Notes under the pieces: generated by a model | Databases searched by the model: none | What the model saw: only the letters and a program-made list of their open reading frames with translations | What the model was told of the DNA's origin: nothing | NCBI RefSeq assembly: GCF_022846255.1 | Contig: NZ_AP025682.1 | Source: Escherichia coli | Lineage (GTDB): Bacteria; Pseudomonadota; Gammaproteobacteria; Enterobacterales; Enterobacteriaceae | Reading direction: 5' to 3' (one strand) | Length of the DNA: 64,000 nt | Position numbers and translations under genes: made by a program | Part shown: one piece after another, positions 49,801 through 64,000 of the stretch | Layout: every line of letters begins with the position of its first letter | How positions within the stretch are numbered: the first letter of the stretch is position 1

Positions 49801-50689
49801 CCAACGGCAAAACGTTGAGCACGGGTCCGGTAGCCGTCAGCGCCGCCGAGCCCAGTCGACGCATAAAGATAAATCCGGCAGCGTAGTCCATGCGGTTGCA
49901 CAATCGCCCCAGCCACAAGGCTGCCAACGCAAGTGCTAAATCGGTACGCTGCACACCTGAAAGTTGCGTAGCCAGCTGGCGGAATTCCCCGTTGGTAAAT
50001 TCCAGTTTCAGGCGCAAAATATCTGCCGAAGCGCTGCGCCCCGGTAAAGGTGCCGGAGAAAGTGACGCGGGCGGTGGTAGTTGACGACGCTGTTCCGCCC
50101 AGAATGCCGCATCACGCTGCCAGGCTTCACTTTCGCGGTACTGCTGATACTCTTCCACTACATCAGCGAAAGGCGTAAACGGCGAAGCAGGCGTTGGTTC
50201 GCCACGCAGCAATGCGCAGTAAATGTTGGCGATCTGGCGTGTAATGGCCGGGAAACTGAAGCCATCGACCAGCAAATGGTGATAACGCTGATACCAGTAC
50301 CAGCGGTTATCCGCCACCTGTATCAGTTGATGAAAGACCAGTGGTTTACCACTATCGACGCGCAGATCTTGTTGCAAATCCGCCTGCATTAATGCCCGCG
50401 CAGTACCGTGCGGATCAATGTTGGTTCGCAGGTCGATAATTTCTGGCAGTTCGAACGTCTGCGCATCATCGACCCACTGCCAGACTTCGCCGTTATCTTC
50501 CGTAAAACGCATCCGCAACGTATCTGCTTGCGCTAGTCCGGCAACCACCGCGCGGGCCAGTAGTGGCGCATCAACCTCTCCGGTTAACTCAACGTAATGC
50601 GCCACGCTCCAGGCGGAGGGTAAATCCGACAGTTTTTCTGCCATCCAGATGCCGGGCTGTGCGGCGACCAAAGGTAAATGCTGGCTCAT
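46808..50689 (-). CDS. entF: Enterobactin synthase NRPS component F (C-A-PCP-TE, serine-activating)
   Basis: 1293 aa from MSQHLPLVAAQPGIWMAEKL; NRPS motifs (HHxxxDG, adenylation core, LGGHSL carrier site, thioesterase GxSxG). Confidence 0.95.
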   Translation of the reverse strand: MSQHLPLVAAQPGIWMAEKLSDLPSAWSVAHYVELTGEVDAPLLARAVVAGLAQADTLRMRFTEDNGEVWQWVDDAQTFELPEIIDLRTNIDPHGTARALMQADLQQDLRVDSGKPLVFHQLIQVADNRWYWYQRYHHLLVDGFSFPAITRQIANIYCALLRGEPTPASPFTPFADVVEEYQQYRESEAWQRDAAFWAEQRRQLPPPASLSPAPLPGRSASADILRLKLEFTNGEFRQLATQLSGVQRTDLALALAALWLGRLCNRMDYAAGFIFMRRLGSAALTATGPVLNVLPLGIHIAAQETLPELATRLAAQLKKMRRHQRYDAEQIVRDSGRAAGEEPLFGPVLNIKVFDYQLDIPGVQAQTHTLATGPVNDLELALFPDEHGDLSIEILANKQRYDEPTLIQHAERLKMLIAQFAADPSLLCGDVDIMLPGEYAQLAQINATQVEIPETTLSALVAEQAAKTPDAPALADARYQFSYREMREQVVALANLLRERGVKPGDSVAVALPRSVFLTLALHAIVEAGAAWLPLDTGYPDDRLKMMLEDARPSLLITTDDQLPRFSDIPNLTSLCYNAPLTPQGSAPLQLSQPHHTAYIIFTSGSTGRPKGVMVGQTAIVNRLLWMQNHYPLTGEDVVAQKTPCSFDVSVWEFFWPFIAGAKLVMAEPEAHRDPLAMQHFFADYGVTTTHFVPSMLAAFVASLTPQTARQSCATLKQVFCSGEALPADLCREWQQLTGAPLHNLYGPTEAAVDVSWYPAFGEELAEVRGSSVPIGYPVWNTGLRILDAMMHPVPPGVAGDLYLTGIQLAQGYLGRPDLTASRFIADPFAPGERMYRTGDVARWLDNGAVEYLGRSDDQLKIRGQRIELGEIDRVMQALPDVEQAVTHACVINQAAATGGDARQLVGYLVSQSGLPLDTSALQAQLRETLPPHMVPVVLLQLPQLPLSANGKLDRKALPLPELKAQAPGRAPKAGSETIIAAAFSSLLGCDVQDADADFFALGGHSLLAMKLAAQLSRQFARQVTPGQVMVASTVAKLATIIDGEEDSTQRMGFETILPLREGNGPTLFCFHPASGFAWQFSVLSRYLDPQWSIIGIQSPRPHGPMQTSANLDEVCEAHLATLLEQQPHGPYYLLGYSLGGTLAQGIAARLRARGEQVAFLGLLDTWPPETQNWQEKEANGLDPEVLAEINREREAFLAAQQGSTSTELFTTIEGNYADAVRLLTTAHSVPFDGKATLFVAERTLQEGMTPEQAWAPWIAGLDIYRQDCAHVDIISPVAFEKIGPIIRATLNK

Positions 50690-50904
50690 TGTGCCTCCTG
50701 CAACTGGGTGAAATTCGCCGGTGTCAGAGTACGCCAGTGGGCTTCCAGCCACTGCAGGCAGGACGCCTGTGACTGCGGCTGACACACAACGTCCCAGCCT
50801 GCCGGTAAGGCGCATTGTTGCGGCCACAGACTGAATTGCCCCTGCGCATTGCGCAAAATGTAAAACGCTCCCTGTGGATCATCGAAGGGATTACTGAATG
50901 CCAT
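50686..50904 (-). CDS. ybdZ: MbtH-like protein YbdZ
   Basis: 72 aa from MAFSNPFDDPQGAFYILRNAQGQFSLWP (MbtH signature); stop overlaps entF start. Confidence 0.9.
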   Translation of the reverse strand: MAFSNPFDDPQGAFYILRNAQGQFSLWPQQCALPAGWDVVCQPQSQASCLQWLEAHWRTLTPANFTQLQEAQ

Positions 50905-50906
50905 AT

Positions 50907-52109
50907 TCAACTCCTGTCATGGAAAAGTGGTTGCCAGAGGTCGATTAGCCCCTGCATCAAGCCACCGCGCCAACAAAGCGCATCATGTCCGCCGTCAACC
51001 TGACGCCAGAAAATGGATTCTTTTAGGGGGTGTAATTGCGCATACAGCGCCTGATTGGCCTGCATGATCATCGGCTCGCGAACACCCGCTTCCAGCACAA
51101 TGCGCAGACCTTCGGCGCTAACTTCACCAGTTTTTAGCTGTTCAAGTAACACGCCCTCTTGGTGCCCGCCCCGATGCGGCCACCAGTACGAACCTGACTG
51201 GCTTAATACACAGCCAAAGCGTTCAGGCCAGTGCAGTCCGGCATACAGCGCGGAAAGCCCACCAAAACTCTGTCCGGCAACCACGGTGCGATCGGCGCGA
51301 TCGCTAAAAGGGGCAATAGTTTTCACCAGGGGTAATAACTCTTGCTGTACTGCCAGCCAGAAATCCGCATTACACGGCAGTTCGTGGGCGCGGTGCGCGG
51401 TGTCGATAGCGTCGATCAACACATACACGGCGGGCGGAAGTTGCCGACGATGGGTCAGCGAAGTCAGCGCAGGCCAGACGGGCATACTCTGCGCCCAAAA
51501 TTCGCCATCAAGCAAAACTGCCAGCGGGCGTTCTTCTGCTGTTGCATCGCCGGTGGTAAAAATCCATACACGGCGTGAATTTTTCAACCGTTCACTTTTC
51601 CAGATAATTTCTTTGGCAGGCGTTTCTGGCGCTTGCGGACAATCCCATCCCGGTTGCAGAGACGCTTGCGGCATTTCGAGTGCAGAAACAGCGTGCCCGC
51701 GCCCGCCTTTCCAGCTTTGTGGATTCAGCGGATCGGCTATCGCCTGGGGTAATAGTTTTCGCCAGCCTTCGCGTAATTCGAGGCGATCGGGGGATGGTGC
51801 AGAAAAAATGTCATCGCGTTCAGTAGGAATAAAGCAGTAGCTGCCGCGCCAGTTGGCATTGAGTTGTGTCGTCCACTGCCAAACATCGGTTCCTGCAATT
51901 CGCTGCATCGACCGGGGCTGGCTGTTCTGATGGTGATCGGTCACGCCAGTGATATAGACCCATACGCGCTTTATCGTCGAGTATTCTTCAGAACCCTGGG
52001 GATCACGCCACCAGAAAGTGACCTCAAACATTTCGTCATTCAGACGTTGCCATTCCGGGCCATGTTTCGACTGCCACCAGCTCTCACTTCCTACTTTTAA
52101 CGCCGTCAC
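50907..52109 (-). CDS. fes: Ferric enterobactin esterase Fes
   Basis: 400 aa ORF from the most upstream in-frame start; esterase fold; upstream of ybdZ-entF. Confidence 0.88.
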   Translation of the reverse strand: MTALKVGSESWWQSKHGPEWQRLNDEMFEVTFWWRDPQGSEEYSTIKRVWVYITGVTDHHQNSQPRSMQRIAGTDVWQWTTQLNANWRGSYCFIPTERDDIFSAPSPDRLELREGWRKLLPQAIADPLNPQSWKGGRGHAVSALEMPQASLQPGWDCPQAPETPAKEIIWKSERLKNSRRVWIFTTGDATAEERPLAVLLDGEFWAQSMPVWPALTSLTHRRQLPPAVYVLIDAIDTAHRAHELPCNADFWLAVQQELLPLVKTIAPFSDRADRTVVAGQSFGGLSALYAGLHWPERFGCVLSQSGSYWWPHRGGHQEGVLLEQLKTGEVSAEGLRIVLEAGVREPMIMQANQALYAQLHPLKESIFWRQVDGGHDALCWRGGLMQGLIDLWQPLFHDRS

Positions 52110-52134
52110 ACCATAACCCCATGTTTACTGTGCA

Positions 52135-52185
52135 ATTTTTTATTGATTGCAGAAATATATTGATAATATTATTGATAACTATTTG
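52135..52185. promoter_or_regulatory. Overlapping Fur boxes in the divergent fes / fepA promoter region
   Basis: tattgattgcagaaatatattgataatattattgataactatt contains tandem GATAAT-type repeats. Confidence 0.8.
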
Positions 52186-52351
52186 CATTTGCAATAGCGT
52201 AATGGCGCGCCGTGGGAAGCGCGGACATTAATTAATCAGCTGCACTGCGTGTCTTTCAGGATCAAAGGTTTTCGCGGTAGCGGGATGCGTCGTGTTGATG
52301 ACGACCATGCCCGACAGTTGCAATTCGTGGCAAAAATGCAGGAATAAAACA

Positions 52352-54592
52352 ATGAACAAGAAGATTCATTCCCTGGCCTTGTTGGTCAATCTGGGGATTT
52401 ATGGGGTAGCACAGGCACAAGAGCCGACCGATACTCCTGTTTCACATGACGATACTATTGTTGTTACCGCCGCCGAGCAGAACTTGCAGGCGCCCGGCGT
52501 TTCGACCATCACCGCAGATGAAATCCGCAAAAACCCGGTTGCCCGCGATGTATCGGAGATTATCCGTACCATGCCTGGCGTTAACCTGACCGGTAACTCC
52601 ACCAGTGGTCAGCGTGGTAATAACCGACAGATTGATATTCGCGGCATGGGTCCGGAAAACACGCTGATTTTGATTGACGGCAAGCCGGTCAGCAGCCGTA
52701 ACTCTGTGCGTCAGGGCTGGCGTGGCGAGCGCGATACCCGTGGTGATACCTCCTGGGTGCCGCCTGAAATGATTGAACGTATTGAAGTTCTACGTGGTCC
52801 GGCAGCTGCGCGTTATGGCAACGGCGCGGCGGGCGGCGTGGTTAACATCATTACCAAAAAAGGCAGCGGTGAGTGGCACGGCTCCTGGGATGCTTATTTC
52901 AATGCGCCAGAACATAAAGAGGAAGGTGCCACCAAACGCACCAACTTCAGCCTGACCGGTCCGCTGGGCGACGAATTCAGCTTCCGCTTGTATGGCAACC
53001 TCGACAAAACCCAGGCTGACGCGTGGGATATCAACCAGGGCCATCAGTCCGCGCGTGCCGGAACGTATGCCACGACGTTACCAGCCGGGCGCGAAGGGGT
53101 GATCAACAAAGATATTAATGGCGTGGTGCGCTGGGACTTCGCGCCTCTGCAGTCACTCGAACTGGAAGCGGGCTACAGCCGCCAGGGTAACCTGTATGCG
53201 GGTGATACGCAGAACACCAACTCTGACGCTTACACTCGATCGAAATATGGCGATGAAACCAACCGCCTGTATCGCCAGAACTACTCGCTGACCTGGAACG
53301 GTGGCTGGGATAACGGCGTGACCACCAGCAACTGGGTGCAGTACGAACACACCCGTAACTCGCGTATTCCGGAAGGTCTGGCGGGCGGTACCGAAGGGAA
53401 ATTTAACGAAAAAGCGACGCAGGATTTTGTAGATATCGATCTTGATGACGTGATGCTGCACAGCGAAGTTAACCTGCCGATTGATTTCCTCGTAAACCAA
53501 ACGCTGACGCTGGGTACAGAGTGGAATCAGCAACGGATGAAGGACTTAAGTTCCAACACCCAGGCGCTGACCGGAACGAATACCGGCGGTGCTATTGATG
53601 GTGTGAGTGCCACCGACCGTAGCCCGTATTCAAAAGCAGAAATTTTCTCGCTATTTGCCGAAAACAATATGGAGCTGACTGACAGCACCATCGTAACGCC
53701 GGGGCTGCGTTTCGATCATCACAGTATTGTCGGCAATAACTGGAGTCCGGCTCTAAACATATCGCAAGGTTTAGGCGATGACTTCACGCTGAAAATGGGC
53801 ATTGCCCGTGCTTATAAAGCGCCGAGTCTGTACCAGACTAACCCAAACTACATTCTCTACAGTAAAGGTCAGGGCTGCTATGCCAGCGCGGGCGGCTGCT
53901 ATCTGCAAGGTAATGATGACCTGAAAGCGGAAACCAGCATCAACAAGGAGATTGGTCTGGAGTTCAAACGCGACGGCTGGCTGGCGGGCGTGACCTGGTT
54001 CCGTAACGATTATCGCAATAAGATTGAAGCGGGCTATGTGGCTGTAGGGCAAAACGCAGTCGGCACCGATCTCTATCAGTGGGATAACGTACCGAAAGCG
54101 GTGGTTGAAGGTCTGGAAGGATCGTTAAACGTACCGGTTAGCGAAACGGTGATGTGGACCAATAACATCACTTATATGCTGAAGAGTGAAAACAAAACCA
54201 CGGGCGACCGTTTGTCGATCATCCCGGAATATACGTTGAACTCAACGCTGAGCTGGCAGGCACGGGAAGATTTGTCGATGCAAACGACCTTCACCTGGTA
54301 CGGCAAGCAGCAGCCGAAGAAGTACAACTACAAAGGTCAGCCAGCGGTTGGACCGGAAACCAAAGAAATCAGTCCGTACAGCATTGTTGGCCTGAGCGCG
54401 ACCTGGGATGTGACCAAGAATGTCAGTCTGACCGGCGGCGTGGACAACCTGTTCGACAAACGTTTGTGGCGTGCGGGTAATGCCCAGACCACGGGCGATC
54501 TGGCAGGAGCCAACTATATCGCAGGTGCCGGGGCGTATACCTATAACGAGCCGGGACGTACGTGGTATATGAGCATTAATACTCACTTCTGA
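52352..54592 (+). CDS. fepA: TonB-dependent ferric enterobactin outer membrane receptor FepA
   Basis: 746 aa from MNKKIHSLALLVNLGIYGVAQA; TonB box DTIVVTA; C-terminal aromatic residue. Confidence 0.95.
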   Translation: MNKKIHSLALLVNLGIYGVAQAQEPTDTPVSHDDTIVVTAAEQNLQAPGVSTITADEIRKNPVARDVSEIIRTMPGVNLTGNSTSGQRGNNRQIDIRGMGPENTLILIDGKPVSSRNSVRQGWRGERDTRGDTSWVPPEMIERIEVLRGPAAARYGNGAAGGVVNIITKKGSGEWHGSWDAYFNAPEHKEEGATKRTNFSLTGPLGDEFSFRLYGNLDKTQADAWDINQGHQSARAGTYATTLPAGREGVINKDINGVVRWDFAPLQSLELEAGYSRQGNLYAGDTQNTNSDAYTRSKYGDETNRLYRQNYSLTWNGGWDNGVTTSNWVQYEHTRNSRIPEGLAGGTEGKFNEKATQDFVDIDLDDVMLHSEVNLPIDFLVNQTLTLGTEWNQQRMKDLSSNTQALTGTNTGGAIDGVSATDRSPYSKAEIFSLFAENNMELTDSTIVTPGLRFDHHSIVGNNWSPALNISQGLGDDFTLKMGIARAYKAPSLYQTNPNYILYSKGQGCYASAGGCYLQGNDDLKAETSINKEIGLEFKRDGWLAGVTWFRNDYRNKIEAGYVAVGQNAVGTDLYQWDNVPKAVVEGLEGSLNVPVSETVMWTNNITYMLKSENKTTGDRLSIIPEYTLNSTLSWQAREDLSMQTTFTWYGKQQPKKYNYKGQPAVGPETKEISPYSIVGLSATWDVTKNVSLTGGVDNLFDKRLWRAGNAQTTGDLAGANYIAGAGAYTYNEPGRTWYMSINTHF

Positions 54593-54631
54593 AGCTAACG
54601 TCAGATTGTTGACAAAGTGCGCGTAGTTCAT

Positions 54632-54666
54632 GCCGGATGCGGCGTGAACGCCTTATCCGGCCTACA
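54632..54666. repeat. REP element (first arm of a BIME) between fepA and entD
   Basis: gccggatgcggcgtgaacgccttatccggcctaca. Confidence 0.85.
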
Positions 54667-54701
54667 AAAAATCTTGCCAATTCAATATATTGCAGGACCA
54701 C

Positions 54702-54731
54702 GTAGGCCTGATAAGCGTAGCGCATCAGGCA
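54702..54731. repeat. Inverted REP element (second arm of the BIME)
   Basis: gtaggcctgataagcgtagcgcatcaggca, a REP in opposite orientation to 54632-54666. Confidence 0.8.
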
Positions 54732-54767
54732 GTTTTGCGTTTGTCATCATTCTCTAATATGGTTGAC

Positions 54768-55427
54768 ATGAAAACTACGCATACCTCCCTCCCCTTTGCA
54801 GGACATACGCTGCATTTTGTTGAGTTTGATCCGGCGAGTTTTCGCGAGCAGGATTTACTCTGGCTGCCGCACTACGCACAACTTCAACACGCTGGACGTA
54901 AACGTAAAACAGAGCATTTAGCCGGGCGGATCGCTGCAGTTTATGCGCTGCGGGAATATGGCTATAAATGTGTGCCCGCAATCGGCGAGCTACGCCAACC
55001 TGTGTGGCCTGCGGAGGTATACGGCAGCATTAGTCACTGTGGGACTACGGCATTAGCCGTGGTTTCCCGTCAACCGATTGGCATTGATATTGAAGAGATT
55101 TTCTCTGCACAAACCGCAAGAGAATTGACAGACAACATTATTACACCAGCAGAACACGAGCGACTCGCAGAATGCGGTTTAACCTTTTCTCTGGCGCTGA
55201 CACTGGCATTTTCCGCCAAAGAGAGCGCATTTAAGGCAAGTGAAATCCAAACTGATGCAGGTTTTCTGGACTATCAAATTGGAAATTGTCAGCATCAACA
55301 GATGAATATAAGCGGGCCGAATGGCGACCATATCGTGCAGTGGTTAGTAAGGGGTAATAATGTTATTACCTTGTGCCTGGTAGATAAACACCCGCACACT
55401 GCAGCATGCGGGTTATCTGGCGGGTAA
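54768..55427 (+). CDS. entD: Phosphopantetheinyl transferase EntD
   Basis: 219 aa from MKTTHTSLPFAGHTL (ORF open from 54690; MVDMKTT alternative start); PPTase motifs (GIDIEE; ESAFKA). Confidence 0.88.
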   Translation: MKTTHTSLPFAGHTLHFVEFDPASFREQDLLWLPHYAQLQHAGRKRKTEHLAGRIAAVYALREYGYKCVPAIGELRQPVWPAEVYGSISHCGTTALAVVSRQPIGIDIEEIFSAQTARELTDNIITPAEHERLAECGLTFSLALTLAFSAKESAFKASEIQTDAGFLDYQIGNCQHQQMNISGPNGDHIVQWLVRGNNVITLCLVDKHPHTAACGLSGG

Positions 55428-55428
55428 T

Positions 55429-56364
55429 TCAAAGCATTTCCCGTGCCTGAGCTGCAATTCCGGCAGCATCAAATCCATGATGCTGACGCAACCACCCACG
55501 ATCCGCCGCTGCGGCATATTCTCCATCCATAATGCCTGCGCGTTTTAATTTGATCCCCGTTCCGGCCTCTGCCAACACTTCCGCGACCAGGCTACCAAGG
55601 CCGCCATTGACGTTATGCTCTTCAACCGTCATCACTGCTTTGCATCCTTTTAACGCTGCCAGCAATGCTTTGGTGTCGCATGGGCGAATCGACGGTACGC
55701 TGACAACTGTAGCCGCGATACCAGACTGCGCTAAAAGTTCTGCGGCATCGACCACTTCATGAACGGTAGAGCCTGTGGCTACCAGCGCCAGTTCGCTGCC
55801 CTCGCGCAAAGTCACCACGGCACCTGGTACAAATCGGTAGTCCTCATCGTGGATTTCCGGCAGGGCTTTACCGTCCATACGGATATAAACAGGCCCCTGA
55901 TAGCGAAGAGCATAATCAATCACCTGACGGCACTCCCGAGGTGAAGACGGGGCAAAGATTTGAATATTGCCGAAACCACGCATAACCGCAATGTCATCAA
56001 TCGCATGATGCGTGCTCGCCAGCGGTCCATAACTCGCCCCGGCATTCAGACCAAACAATTTTACGTTGGTAAAGTTGTAGCAGACATCAACCTTGATTTG
56101 CTCGTTAGCGCGAGCGATAAGAAATGGCGCGGCATTGCAGGTAACAGCCACCTTGCCGCCCAGCGCCAGCCCGGCAGCGGCACCAACCATGCTCTGTTCG
56201 GCAATACCCACATTCACCAGTCGGTCAGGAAATTGCTTAATAAAGGGAGCAATTTTTGCCGTAGACGTTGAATCAGCCACTACAGGCACCAAATCGATCC
56301 CCTCATTTACGGCATCGATAAATGCCTGAACCATCACATTTGCCAGATGTTCACTGTTACGCAT
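55429..56364 (-). CDS. Transketolase C-terminal subunit (pyrimidine-binding and C-terminal domains) of a split transketolase
   Basis: 311 aa with transketolase Pyr/C-domain character; start overlaps the upstream N-subunit gene by 8 nt. Confidence 0.8.
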   Translation of the reverse strand: MRNSEHLANVMVQAFIDAVNEGIDLVPVVADSTSTAKIAPFIKQFPDRLVNVGIAEQSMVGAAAGLALGGKVAVTCNAAPFLIARANEQIKVDVCYNFTNVKLFGLNAGASYGPLASTHHAIDDIAVMRGFGNIQIFAPSSPRECRQVIDYALRYQGPVYIRMDGKALPEIHDEDYRFVPGAVVTLREGSELALVATGSTVHEVVDAAELLAQSGIAATVVSVPSIRPCDTKALLAALKGCKAVMTVEEHNVNGGLGSLVAEVLAEAGTGIKLKRAGIMDGEYAAAADRGWLRQHHGFDAAGIAAQAREML

Positions 56365-57187
56365 CTTTGAGTTCCTTCAGTGCCTGTTCAATTTCATCGC
56401 CTTTCGGCACCCGGTGATGCCATTCCGCACGCCCTTGTATAAAGGAAATGCCTGCCCCTTTAGTGGTGTGGGCAATCACCACATTCGGTTTGCCTTCCTG
56501 TTTAAGCCCTTCAAGCGTCGCGACAACCGAAGCCATATCATTGCCCTGACATTCGGTAACCTGCATACCGAATGCCAGCCATTTCTCTGCCAGAGGATCG
56601 GTGTTCATGATTTCGCGCGTTGGCCCGGCTAATTGCAGATTATTTTTGTCATTAATAATGACCAGGTTATCAAGCCCGTAATGCGCCGCCGCCAGTGCAG
56701 CTTCCCAGTTACTGCCCTCAGCCAGCTCACCATCGCCAGTAATTAAGAAGATACGACGACGGCTTTGACTTTTTTTCGCCGCCAGCGCAAGTCCTACAGC
56801 CACAGGGAAACCATGTCCCAGTGCTCCGGTATTCAGTTCAATACCTGGCGTTTTTTGCCGAACCGGATGGCCGGGTAAGTGTGAATTTGGCTGCTGATAA
56901 GTGGAAAGCCATTCCAGTGGGAAGAATCCTGCTTCCGCCAGCACGCAGTAGTAACATCCAACAGCATGGCCTTTTGACTGAATGTATATATCCCGGTCAT
57001 CGTCGTGAAGGCGATCCGGGGCGACATTGAGAATACGAAAATAGAGTGCGGTCAGTAATTCAACCTGAGAGAGATCGGCCCCAGTGTGTCCACCTGCCGG
57101 GCTATTGGCATTTAAGCGCACGATATGGCAGCGTACCGCCCGCGCTTTACGCTCAAGGGTCTGGATATCATAGCTATAGGGATTCAT
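56357..57187 (-). CDS. Transketolase N-terminal subunit (thiamine diphosphate-binding) of a split transketolase
   Basis: 276 aa; TPP-binding region (GHTGADLS... GDGELAEGSNWEA); SD agagg before ATG. Confidence 0.8.
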   Translation of the reverse strand: MNPYSYDIQTLERKARAVRCHIVRLNANSPAGGHTGADLSQVELLTALYFRILNVAPDRLHDDDRDIYIQSKGHAVGCYYCVLAEAGFFPLEWLSTYQQPNSHLPGHPVRQKTPGIELNTGALGHGFPVAVGLALAAKKSQSRRRIFLITGDGELAEGSNWEAALAAAHYGLDNLVIINDKNNLQLAGPTREIMNTDPLAEKWLAFGMQVTECQGNDMASVVATLEGLKQEGKPNVVIAHTTKGAGISFIQGRAEWHHRVPKGDEIEQALKELKDA

Positions 57188-57216
57188 TTAATACCTCTGA
57201 ATTTATTTTCAACATG

Positions 57217-57228
57217 GAATATTTATTC
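57217..57228. promoter_or_regulatory. Imperfect copy (GAATATTTATTC) of the island palindrome, 30 bp upstream of the transketolase start
   Basis: Near-palindromic 12-mer related to GAATATATATTC. Confidence 0.35.
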
Positions 57229-57366
57229 CACCGGGGACTAAAAAAACCAGAAATCCCAGGGCGTTGCGCGGCAAGACTTACGCTGCTGCATCATACTCAG
57301 GAACATTCTGCCTCCTTACACCGTCAGTTACGTGTCCGGGTAATCATCAGTTGACCTGATATCATC

Positions 57367-57382
57367 TTGAATATATATTCAA
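57367..57382. promoter_or_regulatory. Perfect 16-bp palindrome TTGAATATATATTCAA in the divergent transketolase / regulator promoter region; candidate operator
   Basis: Self-complementary 16-mer; core GAATATATATTC recurs at 58729-58740. Confidence 0.5.
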
Positions 57383-57549
57383 TAATGATTCTTTATTCAA
57401 TTATGCCGCCTGTTTTTTATTTTTGTCCATCGCTGATTTTAAGGATTGGTTAAAGTTAGAACTCCATCACACTTAACTGTCTTCTTTTTTCGCGTATGAT
57501 AAAAGCCTCTAAGATAAGGGCGGTACGTTAATGATTTACGGGGAAATAT

Positions 57550-58500
57550 ATGGCTAAGCAGGATGAACAGCGGCTACTGGTGAAGATCGCCACTCTTTAC
57601 TATCTTGAGGGGCGAAAACAGTCTGACATCGCCCAACTTCTCTCGCTTTCTCAGTCATTTATCTCCAGAGCGCTAACCCGTTGCCAGAAAGAAGGCGTGG
57701 TTAAAATCAGCGTTGTCCAGCCGTCAAATATCTTTCTCAATCTGGAAAAAGGCATTGAAGAGCGTTACGGCATTAAACAAGCGATTGTTGTCGATACCGA
57801 AGATGATGCCACTGACCATACCATTAAACGTGCTATCGGCTCTGCCGCCGCGCACTATCTGGAAACGCGTTTAAGACCAAAAGATTTCATTGGCGTCTCT
57901 TCCTGGAGTTCTACGATTCGCGCGATGGTCGATGAAGTTCACGCCCAAAACTTAAAAGCCAGCGGCGTTATTCAGCTGCTGGGCGGCGTGGGGCCAAACG
58001 GCAATGTGCAGGCAACTATTTTGACACAGACCCTGGCCCAGCATCTGAATTGCGAAGCCTGGTTGCTTCCTTCTCAAAGCATTGAAGGTTCGGTAGAAGA
58101 GAAAAAACGCCTGGTGGCAAGCCAGGATGTGGCTGACGTTATCGCCAGATTTGACGACGTCGATATCGCCATTGTCGGCATCGGTATCCTTGAACCCTCG
58201 CAGTTGCTAAAAACCTCGGGCAACTATTATCACGAGGATATGTTACAGGTACTGGCGGATCGCGGTGCTGTGGGCGATATCTGCCTGCACTACTACGATA
58301 AACATGGTCAGCCCGTGTTGCAGGACGATGAAGATCCAGTGATTGGTATGGCACTGGATAAAATCAAAAAATGCCCGAATGTGGTGGCACTGGCGGGCGG
58401 CAAAGACAAAGTTGCCGCCATCAAAGGCGCCATGCAGGGTGGTTATATTGATGTTTTGATCACTGATTTCCCCACCGCCAGAATGCTGATTGCGGATTAA
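57550..58500 (+). CDS. SorC/DeoR-family sugar-phosphate-responsive transcriptional regulator
   Basis: 316 aa; N-terminal HTH (QSDIAQLLSLSQSFISRAL) plus C-terminal sugar-phosphate-binding domain typical of SorC/LsrR-type regulators. Confidence 0.8.
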   Translation: MAKQDEQRLLVKIATLYYLEGRKQSDIAQLLSLSQSFISRALTRCQKEGVVKISVVQPSNIFLNLEKGIEERYGIKQAIVVDTEDDATDHTIKRAIGSAAAHYLETRLRPKDFIGVSSWSSTIRAMVDEVHAQNLKASGVIQLLGGVGPNGNVQATILTQTLAQHLNCEAWLLPSQSIEGSVEEKKRLVASQDVADVIARFDDVDIAIVGIGILEPSQLLKTSGNYYHEDMLQVLADRGAVGDICLHYYDKHGQPVLQDDEDPVIGMALDKIKKCPNVVALAGGKDKVAAIKGAMQGGYIDVLITDFPTARMLIAD

Positions 58501-58525
58501 TCCTCTCCTCCCTTTCTTCTGCCCG

Positions 58526-58553
58526 CCTTTGCGAAAAAATCTTCTCGCAAAGG
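58526..58553 (+). terminator. Stem-loop after the regulator gene (cctttgcga / tcgcaaagg)
   Basis: 9-bp inverted repeat with 10-nt loop; no clear T-tract. Confidence 0.35.
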
Positions 58554-58646
58554 CGCTTGCTTAAAAATCCTTTAATATCAATAAACTGAAATGATTCAAC
58601 AATCCTGTTTCTCGAGGCTTTCTCACCCTGTCACCACGCTTCTAAG

Positions 58647-58662
58647 TGTGATAGCCAGCACA
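58647..58662. promoter_or_regulatory. CRP-like site TGTGA-N6-GCACA upstream of the kinase/transporter operon
   Basis: tgtgatagccagcaca matches 9/10 of the consensus half-site positions; about 190 bp upstream of the kinase ATG. Confidence 0.45.
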
Positions 58663-58728
58663 TTTGATGATTTTTTCTCTAGCTCAGGAAGAATAATCTG
58701 GCTAAGGTATAAATAAATAATCAGCATC

Positions 58729-58740
58729 GAATATATATTC
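58729..58740. promoter_or_regulatory. Second copy of palindromic core GAATATATATTC, about 110 bp upstream of the kinase gene; candidate operator
   Basis: Exact repeat of the 12-bp palindromic core found at 57369-57380. Confidence 0.5.
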
Positions 58741-58850
58741 ACGCCTTAACACAAAATGTCACAGCAGGGCCTGATGAAGTAATAACGTGACCATGAGGAA
58801 CGCCTCATCTCCTTCCACGCCAGGATGCAATGTGACTCAGGAGACTACCT

Positions 58851-60371
58851 ATGTTTGCAGGAAATAAAGAGTTCGTTGTTGCGTTGGATGAGGGTACCAC
58901 CAATGTAAAAGCCATCGCACTTGATGGTTTCGGTAACGTGGTGGCGAAGTTTTCTCAACCACTGGCTATTCAGACGCCACGTGAAGGCTGGGTTGAGCAA
59001 TCCGGGGAAGCGTTAATCTCTGCCTCGCTTGATGTTATTGCCCAGGCCATCAACCACGTGGGGGCAGAAAATGTAGCGGCTCTGGCTATCAGTAATCAGC
59101 GTGAAACGGCTATCGGCTGGTATCGTCAGAGTGGAAAACCACTCAATGCGGCGATTACCTGGCAATGCACGCGCAGTGCAGAGTTTTGTGAAACACTTCG
59201 TCGCGAGGGCAAAGAGCAGCAAATTAAAACGACTACAGGCCTGCCTATCGCCCCGCTATTTTCCGCGTCCAAGATGCGTTGGCTACTGGAATCTACACCT
59301 GAGGGTGTGCAACTTGCCGACCAGGGTGAAATTTGTCTCGGCACCATTGATGCCTGGTTGCTATGGAACTTGACTGCTGGCGATTCATTTTGCTGCGACT
59401 ACTCTAACGCCGCGCGAACTCAATTACTTAACCTGAAAACAGGCGAGTGGGATGAGGAAATGCTGGCGTTGTTTCACATCCCACGCGCTGCATTGCCAGA
59501 AATTAAACCTTCCAGTGGCCTGTTCGGTTATACCCGAGGACTTAAAACAATTCCGGATGGTATTCCCGTCATGGCGATGGTGGGCGATTCTCACGCCGCT
59601 CTTTTTGGTCATGCGTTGGGAGAAGCGGGATGTGTGAAGGCGACCTATGGGACCGGTTCTTCCGTCATGGCCCCCGTCAACTCTGCTCAGTGTGATATCG
59701 CCACACTTGCCACAACCATTGCCTGGCATGATGGCGAAAATATTATTTACGGTCTGGAAGGAAATATCCCCCACACCGGCGATGCCGTGGCATGGATGGC
59801 TGACAGCACCGGTTTAAGTGAACTGACAGACGCGGAGCTGGCCCACGAACTGAATACCCTGCCAGCCTCAGTGGATTCGACTATGGGTGTTTATTTTGTT
59901 CCTGCTCTCACTGGCCTGGGCGCGCCATGGTGGGATGACAGCGCTCGCGGCGTGGTGTGTGGCTTAAGCCGTGGCGTAAAGCGCGCGCATTTGATTCGTG
60001 CCGCAATGGAATCAATCACTTATCAAATTGCAGATGTAGTGGAGGCAATGCAACAGCATGATGATTTTCACTTATCGGCGTTAATGGTGGATGGCGGCCC
60101 GACCAAAAATGACTGGTTGATGCAATATCAGGCGGATCTGCTGGGTTGCCCGGTGATGCGCAGTGATGTGCCAGAGCTTTCAGCCATTGGTGCGGGCCTG
60201 CTCGCCCGCAAAGCGCTTATCCCCGGTACCGTTGCAGATTTAAAAGCGTTATTAACTGAACACAGTGAATTTAAACCGGACATGGCGCGTCATCAGCGAC
60301 TGCAAAAGAGATGGCAGGAGTGGCGTCATGCGGTAAACAGAACATTATGGAAACCGGCATCGTCAATTTGA
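58851..60371 (+). CDS. FGGY-family carbohydrate kinase (xylulokinase / AI-2 kinase-like)
   Basis: 506 aa; FGGY N- and C-domain character; SD aggag before ATG. Confidence 0.8.
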   Translation: MFAGNKEFVVALDEGTTNVKAIALDGFGNVVAKFSQPLAIQTPREGWVEQSGEALISASLDVIAQAINHVGAENVAALAISNQRETAIGWYRQSGKPLNAAITWQCTRSAEFCETLRREGKEQQIKTTTGLPIAPLFSASKMRWLLESTPEGVQLADQGEICLGTIDAWLLWNLTAGDSFCCDYSNAARTQLLNLKTGEWDEEMLALFHIPRAALPEIKPSSGLFGYTRGLKTIPDGIPVMAMVGDSHAALFGHALGEAGCVKATYGTGSSVMAPVNSAQCDIATLATTIAWHDGENIIYGLEGNIPHTGDAVAWMADSTGLSELTDAELAHELNTLPASVDSTMGVYFVPALTGLGAPWWDDSARGVVCGLSRGVKRAHLIRAAMESITYQIADVVEAMQQHDDFHLSALMVDGGPTKNDWLMQYQADLLGCPVMRSDVPELSAIGAGLLARKALIPGTVADLKALLTEHSEFKPDMARHQRLQKRWQEWRHAVNRTLWKPASSI

Positions 60372-60474
60372 CGAACAAGACTAACCAACGGAAGGAGAAT
60401 ACCGGCCCATAAATAATTCAGGCTTTACGTTGTTTCACCGTACCCGACAATAACAACACAGAGAGAACATTGTC

Positions 60475-61410
60475 ATGAAATTACGTTTAACACTGTTAAC
60501 CGCTGCGACCCTGACTGCTCTTTCTTTTTCTGCTCATGCGGTAGAAAAAGGAACCATTATGATTATGGTCAATTCACTGGATAATCCTTATTACGCCTCG
60601 GAAGCGAAAGGTGCCAGTGAAAAAGCCCAGCAACTGGGATATAAAACGACCATTCTTTCTCATGGTGAAGATGTCAAAAAACAGAATGAACTGATCGATA
60701 CTGCAATTGGTAAAAAAGTTCAGGGCATTATTTTAGATAATGCCGACTCCACTGCCAGTGTTGCAGCCATTGAAAAAGCAAAAAAAGCAGGTATTCCCGT
60801 TATATTAATTAATCGCGAAATACCTGTGGATGATGTTGCACTGGTGCAAATTACCCATAATAACTTCCAGGCTGGCTCGGAAGTTGCCAACGTATTTGTC
60901 GAGAAAATGGGAGAGAAAGGAAAATATGCCGAACTCACCTGTAATCTTGCTGATAATAATTGCGTAACTCGCTCGAAATCTTTCCATCAGGTCATTGACC
61001 AGTTCCCTGAAATGGTCAGCGTGGCGAAGCAAGATGCCAAAGGCACGTTAATTGATGGCAAACGGATAATGGACAGTATTCTGCAAGCCCATCCCGATGT
61101 AAAAGGGGTGATTTGTGGTAATGGTCCGGTTGCACTGGGAGCTATCGCAGCACTGAAAGCAGCCAATCGCAATGACGTTATTGTTGTCGGCATTGATGGC
61201 AGTAACGATGAGCGCGATGCCGTGAAAGCCGAATCATTGCAGGCTACCGTGATGTTACAAGCGCAAGCCATTGCCGCGCAGGGGGTTACCGATTTGGATA
61301 ATTACCTGCAAAAAGGAGTTAAACCAGCCAAACAGCGGGTGATGTTCCGCGGCATTCTGATAACCAAAGATAACGCAGATAAAGTCCAGGATTTCAATAT
61401 CAAATCCTGA
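60475..61410 (+). CDS. Periplasmic sugar-binding protein of an ABC transporter (RbsB/LsrB-like)
   Basis: 311 aa; signal peptide ending SAHA; periplasmic binding protein type I fold features. Confidence 0.8.
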   Translation: MKLRLTLLTAATLTALSFSAHAVEKGTIMIMVNSLDNPYYASEAKGASEKAQQLGYKTTILSHGEDVKKQNELIDTAIGKKVQGIILDNADSTASVAAIEKAKKAGIPVILINREIPVDDVALVQITHNNFQAGSEVANVFVEKMGEKGKYAELTCNLADNNCVTRSKSFHQVIDQFPEMVSVAKQDAKGTLIDGKRIMDSILQAHPDVKGVICGNGPVALGAIAALKAANRNDVIVVGIDGSNDERDAVKAESLQATVMLQAQAIAAQGVTDLDNYLQKGVKPAKQRVMFRGILITKDNADKVQDFNIKS

Positions 61411-61456
61411 TCCCAGGTCGTTGCGCCCTCACAATGAGGGCGCAGAGGAGAATATT

Positions 61457-62077
61457 ATGGATAAAAAAGTCTGGCTGGCGCTGGCAATTCTGAGCCTGGG
61501 TGGATGTCGCATCGTCTCGCAGCAGGAACTTGCCGATCTCAAATCCCCGCCTAATCCTCATATGGCAAATATCGATCAGACCTGGCAGAAAAATATCGTG
61601 CCGCAGGTGGTAGAAAATGCACGTCCGGTTGCGGAGTTAATGGCGGCGCTACAGGCAGAAAAAGATGTCGATGCTGCCTGTAAAACGCTGGGCTATCGTT
61701 CTCAGGAAGAAAACCCGTGTATTTTCTACGTTAAGGTCGAAGGTGGCATCACCAATATTGATGCGAAATCCCGTAGCGGAAAAATGACCATCACAGATAT
61801 CAGCGGCACAAATATTGTCGTGCAGACGGGGCCAACTCTTCGCGGCACGCTTCTGCGAGATGCATATAAAGGTGCAAGCTATGAGCATTTTAACGATCAG
61901 GTTTTATTTGGTGAATATGGTCGTGCTATCAATGAGCAAGCCATCAATATGATTCAGTCGGCAAAGCTTAAAACCGGGGAAACGGTTCAGGTTTATGGCG
62001 TATTTTCTGCATGGGATATTCCGCAAACTATCCCGGATATAACGCCTGCGAAAATAGCCAGGGCGGGAGGCGAGTAA
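61457..62077 (+). CDS. Putative lipoprotein of unknown function embedded in the ABC transporter operon
   Basis: 206 aa from MDKKVWLALAILSLGGC (lipobox LGGC); AGGAG SD before this ATG; the ORF track entry starts 12 codons upstream. Confidence 0.55.
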   Translation: MDKKVWLALAILSLGGCRIVSQQELADLKSPPNPHMANIDQTWQKNIVPQVVENARPVAELMAALQAEKDVDAACKTLGYRSQEENPCIFYVKVEGGITNIDAKSRSGKMTITDISGTNIVVQTGPTLRGTLLRDAYKGASYEHFNDQVLFGEYGRAINEQAINMIQSAKLKTGETVQVYGVFSAWDIPQTIPDITPAKIARAGGE

Positions 62078-62078
62078 T

Positions 62079-63623
62079 ATGTTGCCGCAAGAAATTGACA
62101 CCCCCCAGACTGATGAATCACCTGTAATCATAGAAACGCATGACTTATCGCGTATTTATCCGGGTGTGGTGGCGTTAGATAACGTGAATTACCGTGTCTA
62201 TCGCAATAGAGTGAATGTGCTTATTGGTGAAAACGGTGCGGGTAAATCCACAATGATGAAAATGCTGGCGGGGGTTGAAACACCTTCCTCAGGCAAGATC
62301 ATTCTTGATGGTAAAGAAGTTACCCTAAATTCTACCCATCAGGCCGAAAAACATGGAATTAGTATCATTTTTCAGGAACTGAATTTATTCCCGAATATGA
62401 ATGTCATAGATAACATTTTCATGGCGAATGAATTTTTTCAGAAAGGGAAGATTAACGAAAAATATCAGTATGAATTAGCCAAATCTTTATTAGAGAGACT
62501 GGAGTTGGACGTTGATCCCTATACCCAACTGGGAGAACTTGGTATTGGTCATCAGCAACTGGTGGAGATTGCCCGTGCCCTTTCTAAAGATACCCGGGTA
62601 CTGATTATGGATGAACCGACCTCGGCCCTCAGCCAGTCGGAAGTCAAAGTACTTTTCAATGTGATCGCACAACTGAAGCGCCGTGGTGTCACCATCATTT
62701 ATATCTCCCACCGTCTGGAAGAGTTGATGGAGATTGGCGATTTCATCACCATTTTCCGTGATGGTCGCTTTATTAGTGAACGCGCAGTGAGCGATGCCAG
62801 TATTCCGTGGATCATCGCACAAATGGTCGGTGATAAGAAAAAACATTTTGATTATCAACCAGCTACACAAGGTGACACTGTACTGGCGGTACTGGGGTTA
62901 ACGGCGCTGCATCCCAGCGGTGGTTACAAACTCAATGATGTGACATTCAACCTGCGTAAAGGCGAAGTTATCGGCATTTACGGCTTGCTGGGCGCAGGAC
63001 GTACTGAGCTATTTAAAGGACTGGTGGGCCTGATGCCCTGTCAGAGTGGGAAGATCCTGCTTAATGGTGAAACCATCGACAAATGCCATTTCCAGGCGCG
63101 GCTCAAAAAGGGGCTGGCGTTGGTGCCAGAAGATCGCCAGGGCGAAGGCGTCGTTCAGATGATGTCGATTCAGTCCAATATGACGCTATCCGATTTCAGC
63201 CTGCAAGGTTTTCGCCGTGCCTGGAAATGGCTGAATCCGCAAAAAGAGAGCGCCAGTGTGAAAGAGATGATCCAGCAACTGGCGATCAAAGTCAGTGATG
63301 CCGAACTCCCTATTACCTCACTCAGCGGCGGTAACCAGCAAAAAGTGGTACTTGGCAAAGCGTTGATGACCCAGCCACAGGTGGTGTTTCTTGATGAACC
63401 CACACGCGGCATTGATGTTGGCGCAAAAACCGACGTCTATCAGCTGGTGGGAAAAATGGCACAACAGGGGCTGGCAGTCATGTTCTCTTCTTCAGAACTC
63501 GATGAAGTCATGGCACTGGCAGATCGCATTCTGGTGATGGCTGATGGCCGTATTACCGCTGATCTACCCCGGGGCGAAGTCACCCGAGAGAAACTGATCG
63601 CGGCTTCAACACCTCAAGATTAA
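62079..63623 (+). CDS. Sugar ABC transporter ATP-binding protein with duplicated ABC domains (RbsA-like)
   Basis: 514 aa; Walker A GENGAGKST in first domain, signature LSGGNQQK in second domain. Confidence 0.85.
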   Translation: MLPQEIDTPQTDESPVIIETHDLSRIYPGVVALDNVNYRVYRNRVNVLIGENGAGKSTMMKMLAGVETPSSGKIILDGKEVTLNSTHQAEKHGISIIFQELNLFPNMNVIDNIFMANEFFQKGKINEKYQYELAKSLLERLELDVDPYTQLGELGIGHQQLVEIARALSKDTRVLIMDEPTSALSQSEVKVLFNVIAQLKRRGVTIIYISHRLEELMEIGDFITIFRDGRFISERAVSDASIPWIIAQMVGDKKKHFDYQPATQGDTVLAVLGLTALHPSGGYKLNDVTFNLRKGEVIGIYGLLGAGRTELFKGLVGLMPCQSGKILLNGETIDKCHFQARLKKGLALVPEDRQGEGVVQMMSIQSNMTLSDFSLQGFRRAWKWLNPQKESASVKEMIQQLAIKVSDAELPITSLSGGNQQKVVLGKALMTQPQVVFLDEPTRGIDVGAKTDVYQLVGKMAQQGLAVMFSSSELDEVMALADRILVMADGRITADLPRGEVTREKLIAASTPQD

Positions 63624-63640
63624 TCAGGCTGGAATTTCTT

Positions 63641-64000
63641 ATGAATCAGAAATATATGATCTATATGTACCTGTTGAAAGCCAGAACGTTTATCGCTCTG
63701 CTGTTAGTGATCGCCTTCTTTAGCGTGATGGTGCCTAACTTCCTGACGGCCTCTAACCTGCTGATTATGACTCAACACGTTGCGATTACCGGGCTGCTGG
63801 CAATCGGAATGACGCTGGTGATCCTGACAGGCGGCATCGATCTTTCCGTCGGCGCGGTAGCGGGGATCTGCGGAATGGTTGCCGGGGCTCTGCTAACAAA
63901 CGGCCTGCCATTGTGGAGCGGCGATATTATTTTCTTCAACGTACCGGAAGTGATCCTCTGCGTGGCGGTATTTGGCATTTTAGTGGGACTGGTGAATGGT
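63641..64000 (+). CDS. Sugar ABC transporter permease (RbsC/AraH-like), N-terminal part; 3' end outside the window
   Basis: Open frame from ATG 63641 to the window end (120 codons, no stop); hydrophobic helices and a GGIDLSVG motif; absent from the ORF track because no stop is reached. Confidence 0.75.
   Translation, partial: MNQKYMIYMYLLKARTFIALLLVIAFFSVMVPNFLTASNLLIMTQHVAITGLLAIGMTLVILTGGIDLSVGAVAGICGMVAGALLTNGLPLWSGDIIFFNVPEVILCVAVFGILVGLVNG

Follow-up and report, generated by a model that had tools for sequence, protein, structure and literature searches.

A mosaic entD allele at the left edge of the D-apiose cluster of Escherichia coli

A gene cluster for the degradation of D-apiose has been described in E. 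coli STc131/STc14 and in E. fergusonii (PMC13001218; J Bacteriol 2026). The relevant passages of that paper report that ST131, ST1193, and E. fergusonii strains carrying this cluster grow on D-apiose, place the cluster downstream of the enterobactin genes, and, on the basis of an entD tree, count entD within the region that recombination has spread; the apulose-4-phosphate transketolase route of D-apiose is cited there from Carter et al. (2018, Nat Chem Biol 14:696). For ST131 and the ST14/ST1193 complex, these passages already cover the island, growth on the sugar, the site by the enterobactin genes, and entD as a co-transferred gene; the details added here are incremental to them.

The same paper recognizes the cluster by a split transketolase (aptA/aptB) and an FGGY kinase within 10 consecutive genes. 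Our window, a 64,000-nt stretch of one strand of an E. coli contig (NZ_AP025682.1), holds this combination within 10 consecutive genes, with aptA/aptB in the ORFs at 55429-57187 and the FGGY kinase at 58851-60371. The gene for the C-terminal transketolase subunit (55429..56364, minus strand), an ORF with Pfam Transket_pyr and Transketolase_C domains, is presumably aptB, judging from the locus-tag order in PMC13001218. The gene for the N-terminal subunit, aptA (56357..57187, minus strand; ORF with a profile match), overlaps it by 8 nt and is preceded by a promoter-like site found by pattern scan (57429-57400, minus strand). The ORFs in the rest of the window (57550..64000, plus strand) encode a SorC/DeoR-type regulator, the FGGY kinase (aplK), a sugar-binding protein, a DUF2291 protein, and an ABC ATPase; the cluster extends beyond the window end. 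The full 10-gene cluster is present in a near-identical locus (L001, 99.5% identical), where its right boundary lies 7 nt after the last SDR gene.

In our opinion, the junction between entD and aptB is probably the left end of a D-apiose cassette exchanged by homologous recombination, with a convergent abutment that is old and an entD frame that reads through the aptAB hairpin. In a minority of E. coli (ST131, the ST14/ST1193 complex, and relatives), entD and hokE are separated by a cluster of roughly 11 kb, which would move by homologous recombination, using the conserved 5′ two-thirds of entD as its left arm and the hokE locus as its right arm; with such a left arm, the cassette would carry its own, very divergent last 49 entD codons. 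The left crossover in this strain would fall at codons 170-171, at about 55275-55280. The convergent entD/aptB abutment would have been inherited with the cassette, as an old compact arrangement common to Citrobacter, Raoultella, Intestinirhabdus, and Trabulsiella, and the Escherichia entD frame would pass codon 207 and continue for 13 more codons through a palindrome.

Geometry and conservation of the entD-aptB junction

The stop codon of entD (TAA, 55425-55427) and that of the transketolase C-subunit gene (TCA, i.e., TGA on the minus strand, 55429-55431) are separated by the single base 55428, so that the sequence across the junction reads ...ggcggg TAA t TCA aagc.... The second of these stops closes an ORF of 311 aa (55429..56364, minus strand). 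The initial annotation had reported both the 1-nt spacing and a 6-bp stem formed by cccgca (55391-55396) and tgcggg (55407-55412). Both are present, and the stem is actually 7 bp long (55390-55396 / 55407-55413). An assembly artefact is ruled out for the junction, which is found in 630 complete E. coli genomes. The one-base gap and the hairpin are real, yet ordinary: they mark the edge of the published D-apiose cluster of ST131-type lineages.

In four other genera, 12 loci have the same order: fepA-entD, convergent aptB-aptA, and then the remaining genes through SDR2. In Citrobacter, Raoultella, Intestinirhabdus, and Trabulsiella, the gap between entD and the transketolase gene ranges from -23 to +56 nt, with stop-to-stop distances of 3, -4, 22, 52-56, and -23 nt. 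Conservation reaches the right end as well, where C. amalonaticus has the same SDR2/hairpin/hok sequence. Abutment of this kind had been regarded as typical of an acquisition or deletion scar, a view that is not borne out, given that tight or overlapping entD/transketolase convergence is kept in these four genera. The island proteins share 84-96% aa identity with those of Citrobacter and FepA shares 80-83%, a similar divergence that would also fit vertical descent.

The mosaic entD allele and the origin of the exchanged segment

The entD gene (54768..55427, plus strand), an ORF also annotated by PGAP in near-identical genomes, encodes an Sfp/EntD-type phosphopantetheinyl transferase of 219 aa that, in the PGAP annotation of those genomes, ends in LVDKHPHTAACGLSGG; the allele is mosaic. 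The protein scores 397 bits against the NCBIfam EntD equivalog NF007604 (cut-off 169), which matches residues 1-205 only, and Pfam PF17837 and PF01648 match EntD homologs. Residues G105, D107, E109, F148-S153, and K156, which comprise the GxD...E metal ligands and the FSxKES motif, are invariant in 27 sequences; the invariant D107, E109, K151, and E152 all lie within codons 1-170. A sequence search of solved structures gave the EntD PPTase 7bcz as the nearest solved relative (E = 4.5e-20). The matches to solved structures end at about residue 157-159 and are therefore uninformative on the C-terminal segment; for this reason, an AF2 model was used instead (mean pLDDT 88.8, pTM 0.84), in which the two-lobed PPTase fold is complete and its terminal strands reach residue 204.

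The 5′ part of the gene, codons 1-170 (54768..55276, plus strand), is of the resident Escherichia type: it shares 94-98% nt identity with island-free E. coli, and residues 1-170 are 97.1% identical to those of K-12. It contains all catalytic motifs and would act as the left homology arm. At its end, identity in the alignment to K-12 drops from about 96% to about 50%. Site-by-site bracketing places the crossover at 55274-55277, since 55274 is the last base in common with the K-12 type as against other island-type alleles and 55277 is the first island-specific base; dense divergence follows from 55280 on. In about 4,800 island-free genomes, the megablast match ends at query 677-680, i.e., at 55276-55279, and in the near-isogenic pair 21AR0173 (island-plus) and A37 (island-free) entD is identical up to 55276. 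Bracketing and megablast together define a recombination boundary at 55275..55280 (plus strand; codons Q170-I171), where the variable segment of this strain begins on its left side.

The position of this boundary separates two claims made in the initial annotation. That the abutment itself is the breakpoint does not hold, as homology between island-plus and island-free strains ends some 150 bp upstream of it, inside entD. That a variable segment, exchanged horizontally, has its edge in this region is, on the other hand, supported by the comparison with island-free strains; both the EntD C-terminus and the downstream sequence differ there, so that the comparison does not turn against the earlier proposal.

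Codons 171-206 (55278..55385, plus strand) represent a true entD 3′ end, though a very divergent one, not junction-derived sequence. They align with the K-12 type free of gaps, at about 50% nt identity and 36% aa identity (residues 171-203), and tblastn alignments to Citrobacter EntD extend through residues 202-205. The AF2 model places strands at residues 170-175, 178-183, 186-195, and 198-204, with block-mean pLDDT values of 76-95. Thus, the earlier suggestion that the EntD tail is partly derived from junction sequence fails for these codons, which model as normal terminal β-strands, but agrees with codons 207-219, which are without counterpart in any other EntD.

The island-type 3′ end occurs in 630 of 5,426 complete E. 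coli genomes, in one copy each and always annotated beside a transketolase gene. The K-12-type end occurs in 4,783, and the two types together account for 5,413 of the 5,426. Within E. coli, identity among K-12-type ends is 80-100%, as against 95-100% among island-type ends. Compared with Escherichia sp. MOD1-EC7003, the island of our window is 97-100% identical and the ent flank about 93%. Left crossover points differ among island-plus lineages, and at the right arm homology restarts at the boundary 7 nt past the last SDR gene, at the hokE-proximal hairpin.

Features of a classical integrative genomic island were not found. The annotated cluster contains no mobility genes, integrase and transposase included, there is no tRNA gene within 50000-64000, and base composition is not atypical, with a GC content of 45-54% in the island vs. 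51-57% in the flank. Inspection of the alignments by eye revealed no direct repeat at the two island boundaries.

With respect to a donor, when the transketolase C subunit was compared with species-representative genomes, no relative outside Escherichia exceeded 90% aa identity. None of the non-Escherichia proteins in the EntD search carries an island-type C-terminus, and the best match to the entD 3′ end has 42% aa identity over 33 residues. We infer that the transfer was probably into Escherichia. The cluster could instead be ancestral in Escherichia, inherited from an ancestor shared with Citrobacter and Raoultella and lost in most Escherichia; the K-12-type entD 3′ end would then have come with the replacing DNA, and the junction would be an ancestral gene boundary. 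This history accounts for the full synteny kept in other genera, which includes both flanks (fepA-entD and hok), for island proteins that diverge from Citrobacter about as much as FepA does, and for an EntD C-segment that is nearer to Citrobacter in the island type (33-42% identity) than in the K-12 type (15-30%). We nevertheless consider it unlikely. A K-12-type C-terminus is found in every island-free Escherichia species sampled, with a divergence that tracks the N-terminal part, and this type of end is far more diverse within E. coli than the island type. Moreover, the relevant passages of PMC13001218 give the island as absent from E. albertii, E. marmotae, E. ruysiae, and E. whittamii. A simple deletion as the origin of the island-free state is rejected, since it cannot make a second homologous entD 3′ end and there is no spare copy at the right end of the island.

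The palindrome and the 13-codon EntD extension

Codons 207-219 (55386..55424, plus strand) form a 13-codon extension, KHPHTAACGLSGG. In the alignment, GAT TAA of K-12 stands opposite GAT AAA of the island-type gene; codon 207 is GAA in one allele and AAA otherwise, at the position of the TAA stop of the K-12 type. All other Escherichia EntD proteins have 206 aa and end in ...ITLCQHD at residue 206, and those of Citrobacter have 207-208 aa. Neither the EntD cluster search nor the family profile, which ends at residue 205, yielded a counterpart of codons 207-219, and the tail is covered in only 3 of 934 EntD clusters. In the AF2 model, the strands up to residue 204 are confident and residues 208-219 have pLDDT below 50, a value that may partly reflect the few alignment rows containing the tail.

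These codons are best read as former non-coding hairpin sequence. The entD frame would have lost its stop at codon 207 and would now run to the first in-frame stop, 1 nt from that of aptB. None of the island-type alleles compared stops at codon 207; stop loss is therefore deduced from the alignment with an allele of paralogous-level divergence. The 13-residue tail, predicted to be disordered, probably makes no functional difference to an EntD that is normal in other respects.

The extension coincides with much of a 49-nt imperfect palindrome (55376-55424, both strands), which folds into 17 pairs and has an inner stem of 7-9 bp (55390-55396 / 55407-55413). Its folding energy is -23.0 kcal/mol on the plus strand (z -3.49) and -19.8 kcal/mol on the minus strand (z -3.35); none of 200 dinucleotide shuffles folds as stably on either strand. 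In Escherichia sp. MOD1-EC7003, the stem is a perfect 21 bp (-46.2 kcal/mol, z -8.3). The inner stem is invariant in 7 alleles, which says little, since the sampled tails all come from closely related Escherichia. The outer stem has two compensatory pairs in one lineage; an intermediate among two further alleles breaks one of them, and covariation support is therefore treated as weak. A dispersed palindromic repeat (REP/BIME, ERIC) is ruled out, because a 154-nt query that includes the palindrome has one place in each of the 630 genomes and none elsewhere. A scan of 54500-57700 against Rfam gave no match at the junction at E <= 1. The matches obtained at this threshold are REP-associated sRNA models only, and they lie in the fepA-entD spacer.

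On the minus strand, pattern scanning finds a terminator-like site for the aptA-aptB (split transketolase) operon at 55382..55413, in which a hairpin (55413->55390; 10 pairs, 6 of them G-C, with a loop of 4) is followed by the T-rich GTTTATCT, 16 nt after the aptB stop. It should be noted that the scan returned 7 sites in 3.2 kb, compared with 3.0 +/- 1.8 expected, so that chance pattern matches are common and the short hairpin alone is weak evidence. The T-rich tail (5/8 T) is GTTTATCT in most E. coli alleles and is weakened to GTTCATCT (TTCAT) in one allele, L065; the 21-bp stem of Escherichia sp. MOD1-EC7003 has no T-run after it. Raoultella has a hairpin and U-tract (UUCUUCCUUUAUU) at the equivalent place, in the 52-56-nt spacer after aptB. 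From these sequence features, the palindrome is most likely a putative 3′-end element of the aptAB operon, with an intrinsic-terminator-like stem and T-rich tail on the minus strand; being palindromic, the hairpin can also form at the 3′ end of the entD mRNA. The remark in the initial annotation that there is no intergenic terminator is literally true, since the intergenic region is 1 nt, but it passes over this minus-strand site.

Could the palindrome be an element selected for its effect on entD rather than a terminator? It might act as a 3′ stabilizing hairpin for the entD mRNA, as a coupling of iron starvation and apiose through convergent interference, or by encoding a functional C-terminal peptide. 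The fold on the entD strand is indeed equally good, all tail-bearing alleles share an unchanged peptide core, HPHTAACGL, and the frame stays open through a 3-nt deletion in the tail of Escherichia sp. MOD1-EC7003. However, a 16-codon stretch has a probability of about 46%, (61/64)^16, of containing no stop codon by chance, and the unchanged part of the peptide is exactly the part encoded by the invariant DNA stem, whereas the flanking residues vary (LVDK, LIDK, LADK, LADE, LPGN and SGG, PGR). The tail is predicted to be disordered, the EntD proteins of other genera work without it, and the tail of C. amalonaticus S646 is unrelated, coming from a 237-nt insertion at the same junction. Selection of this kind is, in our opinion, improbable. 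It would also be a long shot to propose that the hairpin couples the enterobactin PPTase, and with it iron starvation, to apiose catabolism in pandemic ST131/ST1193, with convergent transcription across the hairpin making the two disturb or stabilize one another, or that the 13-residue tail alters EntD stability or carrier-protein choice; through either effect, if true, iron and sugar regulation would be linked in a way peculiar to these lineages, apiose being a plant-fibre sugar in the gut.

A scar of site-specific insertion or illegitimate deletion exactly at the two stop codons, which the unusually tight 1-nt spacing and the variability of the region among strains might suggest, can be dismissed as wholly improbable, given the boundary with island-free strains 150 bp upstream, the same tight junction in four other genera, the lack of an integrase, transposase, or tRNA gene, and the unremarkable base composition.

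Significance and comparison with known systems

The significance of these findings is small, and nothing here would surprise a specialist. Under the cassette-exchange reading, the exact crossover in entD may serve as a marker for tracing the movement of the cluster between lineages. The old entD-apiose-hok neighbourhood in several enterobacterial genera bears on the source of the Escherichia cluster, posed as an open question in the relevant passages of PMC13001218. The gene itself is a tidy example of a reading frame extended through the putative 3′ hairpin of its neighbour.

The closest described system is the D-apiose cluster of PMC13001218, the relevant passages of which give the identical gene order (aptA/aptB, regulator, aplK, ABC transporter, DUF2291, and two SDR oxidoreductases) and the same site and lineages, ST131 being among our matches. 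The nucleotide position of the breakpoint in entD, the 13-codon extension, the palindrome, and the entD-aptB adjacency in Citrobacter, Raoultella, Trabulsiella, and Intestinirhabdus do not appear in those passages.

The extension resembles other stop-codon-loss extensions in that codon 207 is AAA or GAA in place of TAA and in that the added stretch reaches the next in-frame stop and is predicted to be disordered. It differs from them in that an ancestral island-type entD stopping at codon 207 is absent from the alleles compared. Analogously, the putative terminator shares with intrinsic (Rho-independent) terminators at convergent genes a G+C-rich stem-loop 16 nt past the last gene of the operon and a T-rich stretch on that strand, and Raoultella carries the canonical intergenic version. 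Unlike those terminators, the hairpin here lies within the coding tail of the opposing entD, and its U-tract is short, is not conserved among Escherichia alleles, and has no equivalent on the entD strand.

Finally, the exchange itself is comparable to the spread of the high-pathogenicity island in E. coli, a comparison made in the relevant passages of PMC13001218, which leaves mosaic core genes at the edges of the exchanged segments. Here, too, mobility genes are lacking, the core flanks would act as recombination arms, and crossover points vary between lineages. The difference is that the left arm of the D-apiose cassette ends inside entD; the cassette therefore swaps the last 36 codons of the resident gene for 49 codons of intergeneric-level divergence.

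Boundary of the exchanged segment inside entD

The entD/aptB junction of the window reads ...ctggcggg TAA t TCA aagcatttcccg... Here entD (54768..55427, plus strand; start as used by PGAP in near-identical genomes) encodes 219 residues ending LVDKHPHTAACGLSGG. As the initial annotation stated, its TAA stop (55425-55427) is separated by a single base, 55428, from the TGA (55429-55431) of aptB, the converging minus-strand gene of the C-terminal transketolase subunit (55429..56364, 311 aa). The 8-nt overlap of aptB with aptA, the N-terminal subunit gene (56357-56364), is typical of translationally coupled subunits, and divergent promoter-like sites occupy the aptA-regulator spacer (57351-57500).

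The breakpoint, placed initially at the abutting stops, lies within entD. When 5,426 complete E. coli genomes were searched by megablast with 54600-55700, 630 matched over the full length, whereas matches in the remaining ones ended at query positions 677-680, i.e., window 55276-55279. The alignment agrees, with entD identity to K-12 of ~96% to 55276 and ~50% beyond. Site-by-site comparison of eleven alleles brackets the crossover in the window strain at 55274-55277, with dense divergence beginning at 55280 and boundary codons Q170-G172; entD of the island-plus strain 21AR0173 is identical to that of the island-free A37 up to 55276. Island-type SNPs start further 5', from 55239, in ST131, in a further island-type Escherichia allele (L065) and in Escherichia sp. 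MOD1-EC7003; therefore, the left crossover differs between lineages. The proposal that this site is an edge of a horizontally exchanged segment holds. Both the C-terminus and the downstream sequence differ from those of island-free strains, yet the divergence starts ~150 bp before the stop.

The island-type end (55278-55431) is present as one copy per genome in exactly 630 genomes, with a transketolase gene annotated beside it in all matches listed, and the K-12-type end in 4,783. Together they account for 5,413 of the 5,426 genomes, and the two ends behave as alternative alleles. The right boundary lies beyond the window: at the 99.5%-identical locus of strain AF16 (L001), island-free homology resumes 7 nt past the last SDR gene, coinciding with a hairpin upstream of hokE. 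Thus, the polymorphism is one of ~11.1 kb (the divergent 150-bp entD end plus ten genes) versus ~130 bp (the 111-bp K-12-type entD end plus 18 bp). A classical integrative island is rejected, as the annotated cluster contains no integrase or transposase genes, has no tRNA gene nearby and is not atypical in base composition.

Several local features accompany this segment. The 5' part of entD (54768-55276) is strongly mosaic in E. coli, with dense-SNP blocks (e.g., around 54930-54990 in strain M1/5) alternating with identical stretches, and island-plus and island-free strains have blocks in common. REP/BIME-type palindromes in the fepA-entD spacer (54600-54745) explain the ~200,000 places reported by megablast; Rfam ES036 (CssrF) scores above gathering at 54668-54709 (+), with a partial naRNA4 match at 54626-54662. 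Both island-plus AF16 (L001:27888-28544) and island-free C4 (L004:4910-5565) carry a tandem duplication of the hokE toxin locus (~504-bp period), so this duplication does not depend on the island. K-12 carries an insertion sequence annotated as IS421 family between entD and hokE (L002 9070-10182). In AF16 the annotation marks the cluster's ABC transporter ATPase gene as frameshifted (L001:23479-25024); its counterpart in the window (62079-63623) is an uninterrupted ORF of 514 aa.

The EntD C-terminus and its hairpin

Residues 1-170 of EntD are 97.1% identical to K-12 EntD, and residues 171-203 are 36.4% identical, without gaps. In this C-terminal segment, Citrobacter EntD shares 33-42% identity with the window (island-type) and 15-30% with the K-12-type protein. 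All recovered island-free Escherichia EntD proteins, including those of E. fergusonii and several unnamed species, have 206 residues and end ...VITLCQHD, and Citrobacter EntD has 207-208; the full 219 residues are covered by only three clusters among the matches listed (120 of 934 proteins, E <= 1e-20). The AlphaFold2 model (mean pLDDT 88.8, pTM 0.84) predicts four high-confidence strands for the swapped segment (170-175, 178-183, 186-195 and 198-204), with pLDDT below 50 for residues 208-219, and the NCBIfam EntD equivalog match is limited to residues 1-205. Taken together, the lengths, identities, predicted strands and equivalog span mean that codons 171-206 form a true entD 3' end, albeit a highly divergent one, whereas codons 207-219 are an appendage. 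The suggestion of a junction-derived tail is accordingly retained for 207-219, which is not ancestral coding sequence, but not for 171-206. The catalytic motifs all precede residue 157, in the resident part. In the alignment, codon 207 (AAA; GAA in one allele) takes the position where the K-12-type gene has its TAA stop (GAT AAA vs GAT TAA), suggesting that stop-codon loss may have let the frame run on to the next stop; no ancestral island-type allele with a codon-207 stop was found.

The stem cccgca/tgcggg noticed initially in the last entD codons is present but has 7 bp (55390-55396 with 55407-55413), and is the core of a larger hairpin, an imperfect 49-nt palindrome (55376-55424) spanning the whole 16-codon end of entD. 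It folds with -23.0 kcal/mol on the plus and -19.8 on the minus strand (z about -3.4; 0 of 200 shuffles as stable). A minus-strand pattern scan found ACCCGCATGCTGCAGTGTGCGGGT followed by GTTTATCT, 16 nt past the aptB stop. With a promoter-like site upstream (57429-57400) and a terminator-like hairpin downstream, aptAB is thus a two-gene operon reading towards entD. In Raoultella, a hairpin followed by UUCUUCCUUUAUU occupies the equivalent place in the spacer, and EntD stops ahead of it; where aptB does not adjoin entD, e.g., in Mixta and Cedecea, a terminator-like hairpin often follows aptB. For this reason, we consider the palindrome, with moderate confidence, a putative 3'-end element of aptAB now crossed by the entD frame. 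Confidence is limited because terminator-like patterns often arise by chance (7 in the scanned 3.2 kb versus 3.0 expected), and because the T-rich tail is weakened in L065 and missing in MOD1-EC7003 after a perfect 21-bp stem (-46.2 kcal/mol). Two compensatory pairs observed in MOD1-EC7003 are balanced by an intermediate allele in which a pair is broken. The pattern scan gave no terminator-like site downstream on the entD strand; entD transcripts may be terminated by Rho inside antisense aptB, and the hairpin could act as a 3' barrier. A dispersed repeat is rejected, the palindrome being single-copy in each genome, and no Rfam family matches it.

Conserved neighbourhood and direction of exchange

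A synteny survey (scan of species-representative genomes with the transketolase C subunit, then tblastn) recovered the order fepA-entD, convergent aptB-aptA, regulator, kinase, ABC transporter, SDR1 and SDR2 (both SDR oxidoreductases) in six Citrobacter species, Intestinirhabdus alba, three Raoultella and two Trabulsiella. The entD and aptB stops are separated by 3 nt in five Citrobacter, 22 nt in Intestinirhabdus and 52-56 nt in Raoultella, and the genes overlap by 4 nt in C. sedlakii (L011 10939-10942) and by 23 nt in Trabulsiella (L017 and L020 10926-10948). In these tail-to-tail overlaps, the stop codon of either gene falls within the coding sequence of its partner. Tight entD/aptB convergence is therefore a long-standing feature of the neighbourhood rather than the acquisition or deletion scar initially supposed. 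C. amalonaticus shares the far end as well, with SDR2 followed by the same hairpin and a hok gene, and both cluster flanks offer homology for recombination. C. amalonaticus S646 carries a 237-nt insertion exactly between the aptB stop and entD (L010:10937-11173), presumably akin to an ERIC/IRU element, which gives EntD another ending (221 aa, ...RYTQNHSGCIEATSE), the tail having been remodelled independently at this same junction.

We favour a scenario in which Escherichia received the cassette from an enterobacterial lineage sharing this synteny and the cassette then spread through the genus, because the K-12-type end is present in all island-free Escherichia species sampled and is diverse in E. 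coli (80-100% identity), the island-type end is narrowly distributed and uniform (95-100%), and E. coli and MOD1-EC7003 are 97-100% identical in the island and about 93% in the ent flank. The last comparison suggests that the island was exchanged between them more recently than the flank. Along 45429-61037 aligned with MOD1-EC7003 (L005), ent genes are ~87-98% identical per 300-bp block, and identity in the cluster climbs with increasing distance from entD, starting at 97% and reaching 100%. That the cluster was ancestral and then lost in most Escherichia lineages is, in our opinion, unlikely, even though island proteins diverge from Citrobacter about as much as FepA does, and neither the species-representative scan nor the EntD search found a close donor.

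Relation to the published cluster

The D-apiose pathway of the cluster was reportedly described by Carter et al. in 2018. The island itself is the D-apiose degradation cluster (aptA, aptB, aplK and others) of a recent report (J Bacteriol 2026, PMC13001218), the available portion of which states that it is carried by essentially all STc131 and STc14, some E. fergusonii and one unnamed Escherichia species, always downstream of the enterobactin genes, that carriers grow on D-apiose, and that the entD tree suggests entD lies within the recombination-spread region. The junction is ordinary and the island already described. Our results agree with that portion of the report, and add to it the position of the breakpoint at nucleotide level, a dissection of the tail and hairpin, the arm on the hok side and the conservation of the whole neighbourhood across genera.
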